NCBI GenBank assembly: GCA_951406725.2
Contig: OX597842.1
Coordinates: 13,764,001 to 13,828,000, forward strand
From: Octopus vulgaris
Lineage: Eukaryota
Direction of reading: 5' to 3'
DNA: 64,000 bases
Both the position numbers and the translations under genes were made by a program. Below the pieces are notes generated by a model. It had not been told where the DNA came from and did no database searches. It saw nothing but the letters and a program-made list of their open reading frames with translations. Of this stretch, positions 3,484 to 46,142 are shown piece by piece (the stretch's first letter is position 1; each line of letters begins with the position of its first letter).

Positions 3484-3695
3484 TCTATATATATATATAT
3501 AAAGGTGAAGTTGTCTGTGTATGGCAGGTTTGGTAGCCTTCAACTAACACTATCTTCTCAGAGACCCTTGCGGCGCAAGTTGATCAAAATTGAGAGTATG
3601 ATAGAAGAAGGCTTGCTCTTCCTTCCGTAGAAAGAAAAATTCAAATCAGATCATGTTAACACCAAAAATTATTTACATCAAAAAGGTGCTTATTT
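3484..3695 (+). mobile_element. Second, 3'-truncated copy of the same Helitron, head-to-tail
   Basis: TCTATATA begins immediately after the CTAG of the first copy; sequence parallels 3097-3295. Confidence 0.75.
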
Positions 3696-4872: not shown

Positions 4873-5097
4873 TATATTAATCTTTCTATTTCCTTTCCCT
4901 CTCTTCTCACCCCGGCATCTTCCTTACTCTTTCCCACTCCTCCGCTTTCTTCCTCTTAACATATTTGACAGTGGCATGATAAAAAGCAGGCAGAAAAGTA
5001 TAAATTAGGAATGGCATCCAGTTGTAGAATCCTTACCAAAGCTGAGAACGGACCTCAATGTGGCTTGCCAGATCCTTGTCAAACTGTCCAACTCATA

Positions 5098-5318
5098 CCT
5101 ATTTCTTTACTACCCACAAGGGGCTAAACACAGAGAGGACAAACGGATTAAGTCGATTATATTGACCCCAGTGCATAACTGGTACTTATTTAATCGACCC
5201 CGAAAGGATGAAAGGCAAAGTCGACCTCGGCGGAATTTGAACTCAGAACGTAACGACAGATGAAATGCAGCTAAGCATTTCGCCCAGCGTGCTAACCACT
5301 CTGCCGGCTCACCGCCTT
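5098..5318 (-). mobile_element. tRNA-derived SINE family B (Meta/MESC-like core)
   Basis: GAGTTCAAATTCCGCCGAGGTCGACTTTGCCTTTCATCCTTTCGGGGTCGAT...AAGTACC core, repeated many times in the window. Confidence 0.75.
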
Positions 5319-5689
5319 CCATAAATTCTGCAATATTTTCAAACTTAACTGCAAGGCAGTAAATTTCAACAGAGCAACGAAAGTATTACAGAAACTTAAT
5401 ACATCAAATATATTTCAACCAAACTCATATTTATTTCTCTTTACCATGGTTACATAATGAAATCCAAATTCCTTATTTACAATTGTAGACGTTAGAGTGT
5501 TTGTGTTTGTCAATGAATGAGGAACAGAGAAAATTATCTTCCATACAATGGCAACAAGATTACCCAGAACACGAGACAAGATTTCCAACAATTTCCCTCA
5601 TTCATAAAACTTTAAATACCTTTTACTCACCTTGTGGTGTCAGATTATTAGTTCTAGGCACCATAAATAATACTCTATCACACAGGTAA

Positions 5690-6462: not shown

Positions 6463-6625
6463 ATATATATTTTCCTAAAATTTTCATTGCGTCTTGCAAC
6501 CTTTTCAATAGTCATGAATCATAAGGCACAAAAAGAAAATGACTCTCCCCAGACACAACAGAATATGCTTCAACACACAAACTCATATAAAGAATCTTGC
6601 AAACCAAATCCAAAAACGAGACACA

Positions 6626-7495
6626 CTAATGTAGTTTTTCTCCTGTATGAATACGATTGTGTTTAGTTAAGCTATCAAATCGAGAGAATGATTTACCACA
6701 GACATCACAGTGATGTGGTTTCTCACCTGTATGAGTACGCAGGTGAGCAGATAAGTTACAACCTTGAGAGAACGCCTTACCACAGATATCACAGTGATAT
6801 GGTTTCTCTCCTGTGTGAATACGTTTGTGTTTAATCAAGTCGTTACTCCCAGCAAATGATTTGTCACAGATATCACACCTGTATGGTTTCTCACCTGAAT
6901 GGATACGTTGATGTCTAGTCATGTGATGTTTCTGAGAAAACGACTTGTCACAGATATGACAGCAGTACAGTTTCTCTCCTGTATGACTACGTTCATGAGA
7001 CGTTAAGCTACAACTTTGAGAGAATGATTTACCACAGATGTCACAGTGATATGGCTTTTCTCCAGTATGAGAACGTTTGTGAGAAGCTAAACAATTTGTC
7101 GCAGAAAATGATTTACCACAGATATCACACTGATATGGTTTCTCACCTGTATGAATACGTTTATGCCTAGTTATGCTATGTCTATGAGAGAATGGCTTAC
7201 CACAGATATCACAGCAATGATGTTTCTCTCCTGTATGACTACGCTTGTGAGAAGTTAAGCCACTACTTTGAGAGAATGATTTATCACAGATATCACAGTG
7301 ATATGGTTTCTCTCCTGTATGAGTACGTTTGTGTTTAATCAAGTCTGTTCTTCTAGCAAAAGATTTACCACAGATATCACAATGATATGGTTTCTCTTCT
7401 GTATGACTACGTTTGTGTATAGTTAAGACAGCACTTTGAGAAAACAATCTACCACAGATATCACAGTGATATGATTTCCTTATTTTCCTTGACAT
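6626..7495 (-). CDS. C2H2 zinc-finger protein, 10 tandem fingers (289 aa from the first ATG)
   Basis: Intact ORF with ten CxxC-x12-HxxxH fingers and TGEKP-type linkers. The track start at 7528 is TTG; the first ATG is at 7495 in the context AAAACAATG. Confidence 0.92.
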
Positions 7496-29846: not shown

Positions 29847-29945
<99 letters not shown>

Positions 29946-30001
29946 AGAGACTTCACAAGCTCTGAAATAAATGGAACGTTAGGTTTTAAATTTATTCTCC
30001 A

Positions 30002-30700
30002 TGTTTACTCTCAACGTTGAGTCTTTCAATGTTTGCATTCTGTCATCGAATTGGAAATAAGGGCTTTTCCTCAATGACCTCGTGTCGCTTAATTTGGATG
30101 TGCTAGTACTTAGAGACGCCCGGCTGAGTGGACAGACAAGCATTTCTAAATTGCTACGACAAATTTATTTCTCCTGGTCACCCAGAATGTGAGGAGGGGC
30201 TGTCTAAGTTCTGCTCAAGAAAAACTAGATTTAGAGACAAGAGTAATCTTTATTGATCCGGGGGTGGGAGTAGCCTGGTCGTATTTGATGTAATCCTCAT
30301 CATTGATAAGTCTTTCAGGCTGGTGGCTGTTTATGAACTCCGACGGCCGGACAGTTAGACAATTTTCTAGGCTAGAGAATTTTCTAGGAACGTCACACTC
30401 CTTAGTGGATTGCGTTTGCTCGAATACGGATAGGAGGAGAAACACGTATCTCTTCGATCTGCTTAAGCGTTTTTTGCTGGCAAATCTGTATATACTGGAA
30501 CACCCAGACGCTCCACTGTGGACATGGATGAATAGCGATGGATCTTATGGATCTTATATGAACAGGCTATTTCTTAGATGTATAGATAAAGATGTATTTG
30601 TGGGTGCACAATTTCACTACGTCAACTACAGTGATCAGAAGCCTGTGACCAGTAAGTTTGACCTCGAAAGGTTACATAGGCAAGGTCCCGGCTTCTAGAA
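30002..30700 (+). pseudogene. L1/Tx1-type APE endonuclease fragment
   Basis: MFTLNV...LNDL.SLNLDV.V.R(E/D), then WTWMNSDGS..SY..R, SDQKPV, GPGF*K. Copies at 42975-43674 (+) and 46956-47669 (-); N-terminal pieces at 34123, 49643 and 55206. Confidence 0.7.
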
Positions 30701-30977
30701 GCTCCTTAGTTACCTTGGATTTCTTTCATTCATTGGATTGTGGCCATGCTGGGGCTCCGCCTTGAAGAATTTTCGTCGCTTTAACTGGACCTATATATTT
30801 ATTTATTTATTTGTAATCTGTTCTTATGCTTCCGACCTGTAACGCTAAACGTTGCTTTATAGTGACATAAACAAAGTAACAACGTGTCAGGTTGCGATCA
30901 GAGGACAAGCATACACACAAAATATCTCAGGAATACATGCACACGCACACACACACACACACACTCATATACACACA

Positions 30978-31016
<39 letters not shown>

Positions 31017-31536
31017 AAAAACAGCCACACAAACACACATACACACACCCTTAATACATATACGTATTCAGATATGCATGTACATGCAAATATTCACCGA
31101 TGCTTGCGTATATTCATACATACATGTATACATACATACACACATATATATACGTATATATACATAAATTTATATATAATCACATATATACATACATACA
31201 TGTATGCATGCATACATACACATATACATACATACACACATGCATATATGCATAAATACATACATACATACATACATAGATACATACACGCATACATATA
31301 TGCATGCATACATATATGCATGCAAACATACATACTTACAGGCATTCTTGCATGCATACATACATAGATGCGTAGATACATACATGCATATATACATACA
31401 TTCATGCATGCAAATATACATATATGCTTGCATACATACACATATACATACATGCATACACGCATACATACATACATACATATATATATGTATGTATGTG
31501 TATGTATGTATGTATAAGTATATATATATATATATA

Positions 31537-32166
31537 TTATTATTTTCAGGTATAGGTAGAATTTTAATTTAAATAGTAGTGAGCATATATCTCCCTATGT
31601 GTTAGTTTTTAGAACTATTAGCCAAATATGTAAAATAACTGTGCTTATTAATATTAATATATACACTGATATATATTTTATATTTTGTTTTTTTTTATAT
31701 ATTTTGTTTTATTTTGTTTTGTTTACCTTGCATTAGTGTATCAATGAGTATTGTTTATGTGTAGCAAGATGGAGTTTATGCACAAGATTTTATATATTAC
31801 ATGTTTATATTTTTATATTTATATGTATATGGAAAAATAATTTTTTCATAATTTTTTCACTATTATAACAAATTAAATTCTCTGAAGAGGCCGTGGGGCA
31901 TCCTTATTAATGCCTCATTTATACCTGCCTTAATGGCTTATAGGTTAAATGAGGTATGACTGCCCTTACTGCCGAAACAGCTGTCAGATATGATATAATT
32001 ACATATTATATTTTATATTTTATATTTCTATTTCCTTGTCTATTTATATTTACTATATATGTTGTATAATGCCTTTACTGATATGTAATGGTGTAATAAA
32101 GTATTGATTGGGTATCAGATGGTTGATGTTTTATTGATTTAAGTATGTTTCTCCATTTTCTAATTT

Positions 32167-32168
<2 letters not shown>
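31537..32168 (+). mobile_element. Non-coding hammerhead-bearing insertion in (TA)n
   Basis: Bounded by (TA)n on both sides; absent from the paralogous site at 46107-46141. Confidence 0.8.
31879..31988 (+). ncRNA. Type I hammerhead ribozyme with long extended stem II
   Basis: TCT-CTGAAGA-GGC...(~80-nt hairpin including ATGCCTCATTTA/TAAATGAGGTAT)...GCC-GAAA-CAGCTG-TC^AGA; predicted cleavage after 31985. Confidence 0.75.
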
Positions 32169-32233
<65 letters not shown>

Positions 32234-32559
32234 CAGATTACCGCCCAGTTTCGCCCGTTTTGTATGCGATCCTATATCATACTGGAAATAAGAGCCAATT
32301 GCACAGAAATTTGAATTATTTTTCGGACAAAATTGAAGGACATTCTTTGTGGAAAGTGAACGAAAAATTCCCTTTTGTGTTAATTCTTCCTCCTAGAAAT
32401 GAAAAGACATAACCTGAAATGCCTACTACGAAACCCCGCTTTGAAATACATACTACAATCAGTCCCTGGTACTGACTAAACGTCTCCCCTTATCCACCAG
32501 TTCCAACAAATTTTAACGGAAAAGCAGACGAATTACTCAACTAGATTTGACTACAAAAG

Positions 32560-33300
32560 CAGCAGAATGAGACCAATTGTGGCCGGTCCCTCGTGTGAGA
32601 CCCACAGACCTAGTAACTTTATTGATGTCCTCCTCATACGTATTCTGCAACATATACCGAGCTTTATAAGGGATGATCTGGAATTGTTAAACTATCTCCC
32701 GAACAAAACTAGTAAGGACTCCTTTCTGTTTTCATTCGATATAATAAACCTCTACACATCGATTCCTCACGATTTCGGAATAATAGACGTAGAATACTGG
32801 CAGGAAAATTTCCCAAATGACCGAATAGGAAAGGAATTCATTGTTGAAGGAACAAAATCCATCCTACAGAACAACTTCTTCAACTTTAACGAGAACAATT
32901 ATAGACTGAAATAGGGCACGGTGATAGGGATGAGGGTAGCCCTACTTTTGCGAACATTCTCGAGGTATATTTCGAAGTCTAAATATACAAGCACGCTAGA
33001 CTGAAATTTGGATACAACTTCCAAAAATACTTCCTCGCCAACTAGAAATGCTACCTGGTTGGCTGTTTCATTCTGTGGCCACATAACCTTGAACAACTCT
33101 CAAAATGAAAAAAAAAACCTAATCAACAGCAAGAATCACAGCATCCAGTTCACAATGGAAAACAACCACAAACAACTTCCCCTCCTGGAAATCTTAATCA
33201 TAAAAAAATAATAATTACATTGAAACTGACATCTTCTTCACACCAACGGACTCAAAACAAATATATTTCTTTCCCTCTTGCCACCCGAAACATACTAAAA
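32560..33300 (+). pseudogene. Penelope-like RT fragment (Penelope/Neptune-type)
   Basis: RPIVAG, FDIINLYTSIP, ILQNNFFNF, *GTVIG, IQFTME, TDIFFTPTD, SCHPKHTK. Confidence 0.85.
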
Positions 33301-33316
33301 TAAATGTCTTTCGCTT

Positions 33317-33412
<96 letters not shown>

Positions 33413-33532
33413 ACTACACTAAATGTCACCAACTGAGTAACTAAAATCAATGTCTTTCGCTTTTTCTTTTGTGTGTGTGTGTGATTTAGTACATTAAATC
33501 TCAATCAAGCAAGTAACTAGAGACGGCACGTG

Positions 33533-33582
<50 letters not shown>

Positions 33583-34765
33583 CACGTGCCGTCAGTAGTT
33601 ACATGCGAGTGTGTTTGTGTGCGTGTGTCTGAGATAGATAGAGAGAAAGAGAGAGAGTGGGAGGGAAAAAGGAAGGCATGGGAGGGTGTAAGAAGCCAGA
33701 AATAAGCTCTATAGCACATTCTTAAATCGAAGGTTTTAGTGCTTTGCTGTTTTCCTTGAATTTCTTTCATTAATTGGATTGTGGCCATGCTGGAGCACCG
33801 CCTTGAAGCGTTCCCATCGGGTCAGCTGGACCTGTTTATTTATTTATTTGTAATCTGTCCTTATTCTTTCGTCCTGTATCACTGAACGTTGCTTTATAGA
33901 GACATAAACAAAGCAACACCGTGCTAGGCTGCGATCATAGGATAAGGACACACATAAACATGAACACATACACACAAGCACACACACACACCTGCGCGCG
34001 CGCGCACACAGACTCACACACACACAGACACACACACGTAGGGACCTCACAAGCTCCTAAATAAATGGAACGGGATGGGTTAACGCCCATCTCCAACCTA
34101 AGGTAGACCAAATTCTTTCTTCATGTTTACACTCAACGTAGGATTTCTAAATGTCTGCAGCCTGGCGTCGAATTGGAAACAAGGGCTTTTCCTCAATGAC
34201 CTCAGGTCGCTTAATTTGGATGTGTTAGTAGTTAGAGAAACCCGGCTGAGAGGAAAGACAACCATTTCCCCCCTCCTAAACTGCTGCGAGAAATATATTT
34301 CTCCTGGTCACCCTGGAGGTGAGGTGAGGTACACATGGTGGAGAAGTAACCCACCACTAACAGGTTTTTGTATTTTTTACGGAGAACAATGTTTTCGTTT
34401 ATGAAGATACCGATTCCAAAATCGACCAAAAATTCGCCAAAATCGCACCCTCCTTCTTCATTTATAACTTTGTTTCAGAAAAAGTTTTGCGCAAAATAGG
34501 TGATAAAATACGGAGATTATGATTCTGAATAATAATCCTGTGTAAAATGGAAGTTTTTCGACAAAAAAACAAAAAATAGAAAATCTACCCCTACCCTCTA
34601 CCCTCCCGATTCTATGGGCTTCAAACATGCTAGAAAAAGCAGCCAAATCTCACACAAATTGTGTTTGGAACATACGTATAAACTCTGTATCGAATGCCTA
34701 TGGGGTATTCCTACACAATTGTGCCCCTCGATTTTGCTTCACACACACACAAGCATATATACATA

Positions 34766-36739: not shown

Positions 36740-36743
<4 letters not shown>

Positions 36744-37420
36744 CAACAATTGAGGGTAAAATTAATTAATTAATCAATTTCACCAAGTATTCAGTATGCA
36801 AAGGGACCATTTAAGGCGAATTCAAATTATTACATTATATAAAAGGGCTTAGTAAAATAAATTACTTTGCCGCATACTAAAATTAATTAATTAATCAATT
36901 TCACCAAGTATTCAGTATGCAAAGGGACCATTTTACCCTCAATTGTTGAAATTATAATTCATCTTTCTCTATTTAATGCCTCGGATTTTACCGAAAAAAA
37001 GCATGTTGTTTGTTGATTTTAACCCACGCTGGTGGAAGGGGGAGAGCAGAAATTCTTCGCTTGCATATTTGAATTTGCTGGCACTGTTAGTTGCGAGTAG
37101 ATCTTTGGAGGCGATGGGAAGCCGAATAGGTATGCTCCTGCTTTCAGTGTTTTCAAATCCAAACCAGGGAGTTCTGAGCTGATGATAGAAGTGTCGAGTT
37201 TGACTAATCTTGAAACGTACGTTCTCAAATAACCTTTGCATTTGATTTTTTAATGTTTCTACCCTCATACTTTCGTGAGTTGAATTGAACAAACACTATA
37301 TGAGAGAGATTTTCTTTAAGTATTGGAAATAGTTTTAAAAAAGTTTTTTTTAGCTGCTATTTCTAATGAGTTCAGTATGCGGCAAAGTAATTTATTTTAC
37401 TAAGCCCTTTTATATAATAT
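36740..37420 (-). mobile_element. (TA)n-embedded element with inverted terminal segments
   Basis: 36833-36878 is inverted at 37374-37419; internal ~120-bp-spaced duplication; terminal motif ...CTTGGTG...TTTTACCCTC on the minus strand. Confidence 0.55.
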
Positions 37421-37422
37421 AT

Positions 37423-37485
<63 letters not shown>

Positions 37486-37497
37486 TAAATATATATA

Positions 37498-37553
<56 letters not shown>

Positions 37554-37599
37554 TAATATATATATATATATATATAATATATATAAATATATATATATA

Positions 37600-37680
<81 letters not shown>

Positions 37681-37716
37681 ATCAAAATAAAATAAAAACA
37701 TGATGCGAAGGATTCA

Positions 37717-37794
37717 GCGGTACATATGTTTCGGGCCTTTATTAGACAGATTTATAACAATGCATAATGTATGTCTGTGGCCTTCTTCAGCCGC
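37717..37794 (-). ncRNA. Type I hammerhead ribozyme (mirror copy)
   Basis: GCGG-CTGAAGA-A-GGCC...GGCC-C-GAAA-CATATG-TA^CCGC on the minus strand; palindromic stem III ACATATGT. Confidence 0.7.
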
Positions 37795-38070
37795 GCACAA
37801 CAGCTTCCACAAGGACATGTTTTACATCAAAATTTCTTGGTTGGGGATGCAGATCCTCTCATTCACGTACGACATAATGCGGCAGCAGCATAGAATTGAA
37901 GCGTCCATCTCTTTCTTCTCTCTTTCTTCTCTTTTCTTCATTGAGAGAAGAAAGAGATGGACGCCTCAATTCTATGCTGCTGCCGCATTATGTCGTACGT
38001 GAATGAGAGGATCTGCATCCCCAACCAAGAATTTTTGATGTAAAACATGTCCTTGTGGAAGCTGTTGTGC

Positions 38071-38148
38071 GCGGCTGAAGAAGGCCACAGACATACATTA
38101 TGCATTGTTATAAATCTGTCTAATAAAGGCCCGAAACATACGTACCGC
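38071..38148 (+). ncRNA. Type I hammerhead ribozyme
   Basis: GCGG-CTGAAGA-AGGCC...GGCCC-GAAA-CATACG-TA^CCGC; stem I GCGG/CCGC; predicted cleavage after 38144. Confidence 0.7.
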
Positions 38149-38258
38149 TGAATCCTTCGCATCATGTTTTTATTTTATTTTGATCAATTTACTCCACCAC
38201 CTACACCACCAAACGGTATACACAGGTGCTTATAATTATCAAGTACTCATCCCGAATT

Positions 38259-38412
<154 letters not shown>

Positions 38413-38577
38413 GCTGCATTTATTTCTAAATGCTGTATTTTGTTTTCCGTGAGAGTTTGGCGCGTTGTTGGTTGGGGCATTTGAATTATAACGTCCGATG
38501 TAATCAATTGAACCGCACGCGTAATTATCGTTATGGTAAAATCTGGCGTGTGATTGAGTGGATTTCATCAAGATAGC

Positions 38578-38655
38578 CTTGGCTGAAGAGCTACAAATGG
38601 ATTGCTGTAAGTAATATTACATTTAATTCATTAATAGCGAAACAATTGTCCCAAG
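38578..38655 (+). ncRNA. Type I hammerhead ribozyme
   Basis: CTTGG-CTGAAGA-GCTA...TAGC-GAAA-CAATTG-TC^CCAAG; all core nucleotides present; predicted cleavage after 38650. Confidence 0.85.
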
Positions 38656-39112
38656 ATAATCTGTATTTTTGTTATTTTTTATTTGCCCTGTCCGTGTGAG
38701 CTAACAGTCGTACCGGCTTTCATGGGAAACATGTATTTTTCGTGGTTGAAACCTCTTGGATTAACTGGTGCTAGAGTGATCAATATAGTGAACACTCTCT
38801 TATATTTATTTTGTGAAAATATTATAATATGTTATAAAATATTATAATAATCCAGGTTTCTCGTAGCACTAGGCCACTTGGTGTGGAATAAATATACTAT
38901 TAAATTAGTATCTAATTCTCTCACCCTTATTAATTAATTATAATTATGCTGCATTTATTTCTAAATGCTGTATTTTGTTTTCCGTGAGAGTTTGGCGCGT
39001 TGTTGGTTGGGGCATTTGAATTATAACGTCCGATGTAATCAATTGAACCGCACGCGTAATTATCGTTATGGTAAAATCTGGCGTGTGATTGAGTGGATTT
39101 CATCAAGATAGC

Positions 39113-39190
39113 CTTGGCTGAAGAGCTACAAATGGATTGCTGTAAGTAATATTACATTTAATTCATTAATAGCGAAACAATTGTCCCAAG
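39113..39190 (+). ncRNA. Type I hammerhead ribozyme (second unit)
   Basis: Identical to 38578-38655; predicted cleavage after 39185. Confidence 0.85.
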
Positions 39191-39469
39191 ATAATCTGTA
39201 TTTTTGTTATTTTTTTATTTGCCCTGTCCGTGTGAGCTAACAGTCGTACCGGCTTTCATGGGAAACATGTATTTTTCGTGGTTGAAACCTCTTGGATTAA
39301 CTGGTGCTAGAGTGATCAATATAGTGAACACTCTCTTATATTTATTTTGTGAAAATATTATAATATGTTATAAAATATTATAATAATCCAGGTTTCTCGT
39401 AGCACTAGGCCACTTGGTGTGGAATAAATATACTATTAAATTAGTATCTAATTCTCTCACCCTTATTAA

Positions 39470-39515
<46 letters not shown>

Positions 39516-39519
<4 letters not shown>

Positions 39520-40069
39520 CGTATTTTTTGCCATTTCAATAAGGCTAACCCCTAAGGGTGGATGCTACTGTAGTTTTTAGCCCCAGGAGGACACACTCCT
39601 CCAGCTGGCCATAGACACACTATCTGTGTCCTGTCAGTATTTGCAAAGGGAAGTCATCCTTCCCGTCTTCAACTTATGATACACACGGACTCGAGTTTCG
39701 AGGTATTGACCTCTCGTCATTGTTGGATTTCACTTTTCAATATCAGCGACAGTGGACGCTGGAAAAAGTATAAGTATTTGTGAAGGAAATCTAATTCTCG
39801 GCGACAACTATGATTGTCACACGCTGACGAGAGGTCAATACCTCGAAACTCGAGTCCGTGTGTATCATAAGTTGAAGACGGGAAGGATGACTTCCTTTGC
39901 AAATACTGACAGGACACAGAAAGTGTGTCTATGGCCAGCTGGAGGAGTGTGTCCTCCTGGGGCTAAAAACTACAGTAGCATCCACCCTTAGGGGTTAGCC
40001 ATATTGAAATGGCAAAAATACGTCACGATGTGTTACCGCTACTGTATATAACTCACTTTGATATTTATC

Positions 40070-40070
<1 letters not shown>
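39516..40070. mobile_element. Foldback element in (TA)n: ~203-bp inverted arms, 105-bp spacer
   Basis: 39516-39719 is the reverse complement of 39825-40026. Confidence 0.85.
39818..39862 (+). ncRNA. Compact type I hammerhead ribozyme
   Basis: CACACG-CTGACGA-GAGGT(CAAT)ACCTC-GAAA-CTCGAG-TC^CGTGTG; 6-bp stem I, 5-bp stem II; predicted cleavage after 39856. Confidence 0.9.

Positions 40071-46104: not shown

Positions 46105-46142
<38 letters not shown>

Follow-up and report, generated by a model that had tools for sequence, protein, structure and literature searches.

A 631-nt segment of the Octopus vulgaris genome that carries a hammerhead ribozyme motif is very probably a 5ʹ-truncated copy of a Hydra-clade Penelope-like retrotransposon (PLE), residing in a (TA)n tract where the predicted reverse transcriptase (RT)/GIY-YIG protein of its own family probably copied it after the surrounding DNA had been duplicated. 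The segment would represent the 3ʹ end (part of the pLTR) of such an element and occupies positions 31538-32168 on the plus strand of the window, by which we mean the entire 64,000-nt stretch of DNA that was analysed. As judged from its sequence, the family would be a new one within a described clade, located at the target described for that clade, and it may already be catalogued in repeat libraries (Repbase/Dfam).

Filled and empty sites within an inverted duplication

The insert has a G+C content of 24% and splits a TA tract into parts of 19 and 63 nt. Read along the plus strand, the filled site consists of TGTATAAGT, a 19-nt AT tract (31519-31537), the insert, a 63-nt TA tract (32169-32231) and GACAGATTACC. 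On the minus strand, the empty paralog reads TGTATGAGT, followed by a single 35-nt tract (46107-46141) and then by GACAGATTACC. The first-pass annotation had proposed these two places as a filled/empty pair, and the flanks that adjoin the sites bear this out, being identical in 211 of 215 and 297 of 304 aligned columns. Both sites lie within a multi-kilobase inverted duplication, in which 29916-31537 pairs with 47772-46123 at 90% and 32167-33787 with 46171-44564 at 94%. Counted up to the tracts, the duplicated block comprises a left flank at 29916-31518 (paralog 47772-46123) and a right flank at 32232-33787 (paralog at about 46106-44564), both listed on the plus strand and both represented in the third paralog described below. 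The left junction of the insert is ambiguous by a few TAT letters that insert and target have in common, and a target-site duplication is unreadable within the TA tract.

In four public runs, the flank contig at 32240-32680 (low depth) matches the empty paralog at some positions, and the letters at 32355 and 32400 do so in all four runs, as read by eye. These letters could reflect either ancestral states or samples that do not carry the filled copy. The contigs from these runs end without bridging the TA tracts of the site.

Gain or loss of the insert

When the genome was searched with the right flank, the matches comprised the two copies in the window, one more distant paralog (L062, at 15.27 Mb of C29) and otherwise only repeat portions of the query. 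L062 has both flanks (left 84%, right 89%) without the hammerhead insert, and carries a different SINE-like insert of its own near the site. Gain is better supported than loss because this third, more distant paralog is also empty, and the earlier proposal that insertion followed the duplication is upheld in this respect.

The TA tracts on both sides of the insert make a clean deletion mechanically possible, such that the insert could be older than the duplication and have been removed from the 46-kb paralog by recombination between the two tracts. Such a history also gains some room from L062, which at 11-16% divergence and with its own SINE-like insert may predate the insertion; loss therefore keeps a small share of the probability, and L062 alone cannot order the insertion relative to the younger duplication. 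However, a loss would require one extra event, two of the three paralogs are empty, and the divergence values point the other way, which makes this alternative improbable. With microsatellites excluded, the insert differs in 8 of 630 columns (1.27%) from its nearest copy (L002, 565 kb away on the same contig), whereas the flanks of the filled and empty sites differ in 27 of 1060 columns on the right (2.55%) and in 56 of 963 on the left (5.82%). The insert is nearer to a dispersed copy than one paralogous flank is to the other, which makes an insertion that postdates the duplication the simplest reading. The mobility that was initially called recent is so in relative terms only, with the nearest copy at 1.3% and the paralog flanks at 2.6-5.8%.

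The insert is the truncated end of a longer element

A search for dispersed copies of the insert had been suggested, and at least 49 matches to a 629-nt query were found, with 40 of 1969 candidates scored. In addition, one 28-nt half of the hammerhead has 190 exact matches in the 2.8-Gb genome, and a control has none. The filled/empty pair had furthermore been taken to define the boundaries of the element, which proved to be correct for one side only. All 29 of the other top copies extend upstream of the left boundary, and the family unit measures 5.4-5.6 kb (5443-5595 nt, twice the length of described Hydra elements), so that a genuine terminus, one that recurs among the copies, is found at the right boundary only. 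This terminus, which we call end A (...CTAATTTTG then TA; 32149-32168, plus strand), is the main 3ʹ terminus of the family and corresponds to positions 5266-5273 of the unit and position 32168 of the window. A second terminus, end B, is located about 175 nt further on, at unit positions 5436-5443.

Among the first 30 of the 190 places with the hammerhead half, 23 have their 3ʹ end at A and 7 at B. Every one of the 30 sampled copies runs into a TA-rich tract (imperfect in two cases), which substantiates the earlier claim that (TA)n is the target. Genome-wide, A followed by TA is present at 734 forward-strand places (the reverse-strand count of 2500 is inflated by overlapping matches), whereas 616 places read through past A and 329 have B followed by TA. 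Across 30 loci, the aligned blocks have 5ʹ ends scattered between positions 3667 and 5036 of the unit, some of them being alignment breaks. Given the prevalence of A ends with TA and these scattered 5ʹ ends, the insert in the window terminates on the right at the main end of the family and on the left at a truncation point.

A self-contained, non-autonomous element of the retrozyme or SINE type, with fixed ends of its own, would likewise display a hammerhead, no ORF and at least the one fixed end seen in the 631-nt unit. However, this interpretation is scarcely credible when the best matches go on upstream in 29 of 29 cases and the 5ʹ ends of the sampled copies scatter as described, when the sequence of the insert is the 3ʹ UTR of ORF-bearing elements, and when the insert is not part of a tandem array at this site. 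The insert is thus treated below as a truncated PLE copy. A non-LTR retrozyme, which is a short non-coding tandem unit with no coding parent, was ruled out separately, as the copies extend upstream to an ORF. At L002, the copy nearest to the insert is directly followed, within one and the same TA tract, by a fold-back from another hammerhead family (2347-2640, with a 55-nt stem II).

The closest full-length copy to the insert, hereafter C31, begins with (TA)n, an inverted 5ʹ-truncated copy, a 42-nt fragment of the 3ʹ end, a leader and an ORF (unit 132-2803, with a frameshift near its start), and continues through a 2.6-kb 3ʹ UTR with the hammerhead at 4976 into (TA)n. End B is found at both ends of this element. 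In loci chosen by their ORF start, end B is joined head-to-tail to the leader in 30 of 30 cases, and a direct-orientation hammerhead is located upstream in 22 of the 30. This head-to-tail arrangement is the partial-tandem pLTR of Penelope-like elements. The inverted pairs among the 30 places sampled with the hammerhead half have one arm ending at A and the other at B in all four instances. A pLTR built from partial tandems, inverted 5ʹ-truncated copies and an optional tail, all of which are PLE traits, are therefore present in this family.

Encoded protein and clade assignment

Among the 12 loci that were extended, L141 (4271-7114, minus strand) contains an unbroken 947-aa ORF, and the ORF of L142, 949 aa long, has a shifted end. 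The subfamily that carries the unbroken ORF is a sister one, at about 78-82% to the insert, and 2 of the 30 loci chosen by ORF start stay open to the edge of the locus. Many ORF breaks in L111-L140 fall in homopolymer runs, such as a C-run that gives a common stop at codon 460. These breaks may be assembly errors, and intact copies may consequently be undercounted. The stop at codon 460 was also considered as a selenocysteine codon, a possibility that was rejected as its TAG is reached after the C-run frameshift.

Most relatives are about 700 aa in length, and the closest protein match with a named source came from Argonauta. Residues 505-628 and 718-805 of the L141 protein are Asn-rich (26% and 23%), low-confidence inserts that lengthen the ORF to 947 aa. 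The fold of an AlphaFold model of the protein (pTM 0.76) resembles RTs, and telomerase RTs take 7 of the first 8 ranks; a GIY-YIG nuclease is absent among the fold matches listed for the whole protein. The single ORF with a telomerase-like RT that is expected of a PLE is evident, with YRDD at residue 376, and a GIY-YIG-like motif (VVYQC...VYIG) is located near the C-terminus. Pfam gives no match in the 947-aa protein itself, and its RVT_1 and GIY-YIG models each match 1 of 50 aligned relatives. Neither Pfam searches with individual ORFs nor an HMM search against PDB sequences returned anything informative.

Assignment to the Hydra clade is made on protein motifs. The clade description of Craig et al. 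2021 (PMC8557442) lists RWK, DKT, a CxCX5C linker, and CxxC and CxH towards the end of the protein, together with the lack of CCHH, the presence of a hammerhead and insertion into (TA)n. In the 947-aa protein, RWK appears with one conservative change as RWR at residue 37, DKG is replaced by DKT at 138 and is otherwise absent, and the CxCX5C linker before the putative endonuclease reads CNCRNKNKC at 809. CCHH is lacking, as the GIY- and YIG-like motifs have only a single Cys between them, and the CxxC and CxH motifs around a conserved E and N are represented by CSLCINE at 907 and CIH at 935. Among 86 relatives, DK(T/S) is found in 82 and the CxCX5C linker in 62. Insertion into (TA)n, as described for the clade, is likewise observed. 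A length of ‘generally <3 kb’, which is a descriptive rather than a diagnostic trait, does not hold for these units of 5443-5595 nt. Naiad and Chlamys elements, which have an N-terminal endonuclease and no canonical hammerhead, were considered and set aside, as the endonuclease motif here is C-terminal and the hammerhead canonical.

Proposed route of insertion

By analogy with known PLE biology, the endonuclease of the family would nick (TA)n. The RT would then start inside the RNA at site A, or less often at B, downstream of the hammerhead, and at the site studied here it would have stopped after about 630 nt, with the cDNA end probably joined through the short TAT microhomology. As ends A and B both fall downstream of the predicted cut, the template would have been RNA that was either uncut or re-ligated, two forms between which the data do not distinguish. 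The hammerhead itself would act in dimeric form, joined by its palindromic stem III.

A hammerhead with an exceptionally long stem II

The type I hammerhead motif, recognized from the order of its core and its fold, spans 31879-31988 on the plus strand, with a predicted cut after C31985. It is composed of a 3-bp inner stem I, CUGAAGA at 31882-31888, stem II, GAAA at 31974 and a palindromic stem III (ACAGCUGU). Its folding z-score is -5.3, and 0 of 200 shuffles are as stable. Our own descriptor recovers 7 hammerhead motifs in the window versus 0-1 per shuffle (10 shuffles). Rfam, in both gathering and E-value modes, did not detect the hammerhead and returned only microsatellite-driven miRNA matches. 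By motif and predicted fold, therefore, the PLE trait of a type I hammerhead in the pLTR is present.

Stem II is a hairpin at 31889-31973 (plus strand) with 32 predicted pairs. It had been noted as unusually long, which is correct, although its length is 85 nt rather than the ~80 nt first given. Other hammerhead families have a stem II of 12-60 nt by our own descriptor, versus 85-86 nt in the family of the insert, in a survey of the window plus 794 kb of fetched loci that overlap and are enriched for the latter family. The stem II of this family therefore stands at the upper end of a continuum within the genome, and lengths of 12-86 nt may mean that length-limited descriptors missed many such motifs. 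Our literature search found no paper on hammerhead ribozymes with an extended stem II in retrotransposons, the available portions of PMC3088659, PMC6765202 and PMC13282606 contain no long PLE stem II, and only Craig et al. was found on Penelope hammerheads of octopus genomes.

Conservation of stem II

Only 2-3 of the 85 bases of stem II differ between the C31 unit and five sister-subfamily loci. In the same comparison, the ORF is 10%, the UTR on either side 16-18% and the tail 7% divergent, and about 15 changes would be expected in stem II at the rate of the flanking UTR. The five loci were picked by ORF similarity rather than by hammerhead, and they are close kin that represent one subfamily pair. 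Our preferred reading is that the low divergence of stem II would reflect selection on the RNA.

The same pattern might have arisen if the two subfamilies had exchanged this segment by template switching or gene conversion, which is a possible but rather doubtful explanation and one that concerns this peculiarity of stem II rather than the identity of the element. Exchange is consistent with the comparison of a single subfamily pair whose five loci are close kin, and with the lack of two-sided covariation in 32 distinct rows, where the observed score was reached by 404 of 500 shuffles. However, the conserved block of 104 nt coincides with the predicted ribozyme, diverging by 2-3% where both sides diverge by 16-18%. 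Moreover, the three commonest variants in stem II are one-sided changes that retain the pair, namely G-U to G-C (in 6 and 7 rows) and C-G to U-G (7 rows), of 32, although two nearby pairs are broken in 5 and 3 of the 32 rows. Both features argue for selection on the RNA over exchange.

An arm of the ribozyme that has changed less than the ORF is an indication of a further function. We suggest, tentatively, that stem II could be a dedicated RNA domain, serving as a docking site for the RT/endonuclease or in the control of cleavage, whose sequence is held more tightly than the RT gene. According to PMC8557442, it is unclear what hammerheads do in PLEs. If the docking or control function were real, this family, with its two presumed RT starts about 175 nt apart and an unbroken ORF, would offer a ready test system for PLE hammerheads. 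The filled/empty pair itself only confirms published traits of Hydra PLEs, these being (TA)n targeting and 5ʹ truncation, and the features of note lie in the family, namely its conserved stem II of unusual length and its long tail.

Other repeats in the window

At 36740-40070, at least four further repeats with hammerheads are stacked, each of them bounded by TA tracts, and these are likely to be other PLE ends. One motif is located at 37179, and an inverted pair with a 51-nt stem II is formed by hammerheads at 37790 (minus) and 38075 (plus). A tandem dimer of ~536 nt (38403-39479, 99% identical) has hammerheads at 38583 and 39118 with a stem II of 49 nt, and may represent either a retrozyme or a partial tandem. 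A near-palindrome at 39513-40029 carries a hammerhead motif at 39824. Elsewhere, a 169-nt tandem array (1386-2710) comprises 7.8 copies at 97% identity. An array with an 84-nt period (6622-7478) reads HTGEK-type linkers on its minus strand, and is likely a C2H2 zinc-finger array.

Comparison with known systems

The octopus family resembles the Hydra clade, as presented in the clade description of PMC8557442, in its RT followed by a putative C-terminal GIY-YIG domain, in the RW(K/R), DKT, CxCX5C, CxxC and CxH motifs without CCHH, in a hammerhead near the 3ʹ end with a palindromic stem III, and in its (TA)n target. The two also share 5ʹ truncation, partial tandems, inverted 5ʹ copies and a tail on one end. 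In contrast to the ‘generally <3 kb’ units given in that description, the octopus family is 5.4-5.6 kb long with a 3ʹ UTR of about 2.6 kb, and its 947-aa ORF with two Asn-rich inserts is unlike the proteins described there. Stem II with its loop is 85 nt here, whereas no Hydra entry of File S2 exceeds about 25 nt (obtained with length-limited descriptors), and the tail is about 175 nt versus the 30-40 bp described. Hydra-1_Obim of Octopus bimaculoides, listed in the same source at 2507 bp with a stem II plus loop of 22 nt, appears to be a different family when judged by eye against the printed supplement.

The minimal PLE hammerheads characterized by Cervera and de la Pena 2014 (PMC4209133) are, in the account given there, also type I motifs in the pLTR with a short helix I, a larger-than-usual helix II and a palindromic helix III that suggests dimer activity, and occur mostly as truncated single copies or opposite-strand pairs. 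However, their helix II has 6-8 bp, compared with 32 predicted pairs here, and that account stresses high variability of the motif, whereas in the octopus family the motif is the most conserved part.

The Poseidon element PAc of Anolis, as described in Frangieh et al. 2024 (PMC11167929), has two RT starts downstream of the hammerhead that define an optional tail, and ends A and B suggest a similar organization here. In both systems insertion would proceed from RNA that was not cut by the ribozyme, a step that for the octopus family is deduced from sequence, and the same source describes cleavage as dispensable for in vitro insertion by one Poseidon element. PAc belongs to a different clade, and its starts are adjacent and inside the ORF, whereas about 175 nt separate the two ends described here, which lie upstream of the ATG.

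Metazoan non-LTR retrozymes, as portrayed in the relevant parts of PMC7229834 and bioRxiv 10.64898/2026.07.22.740005, likewise have a type I hammerhead, are non-coding and are related to PLE pLTRs. Retrozymes are nevertheless short tandem units, whereas the insert described here is most probably the solo, truncated end of a coding element.
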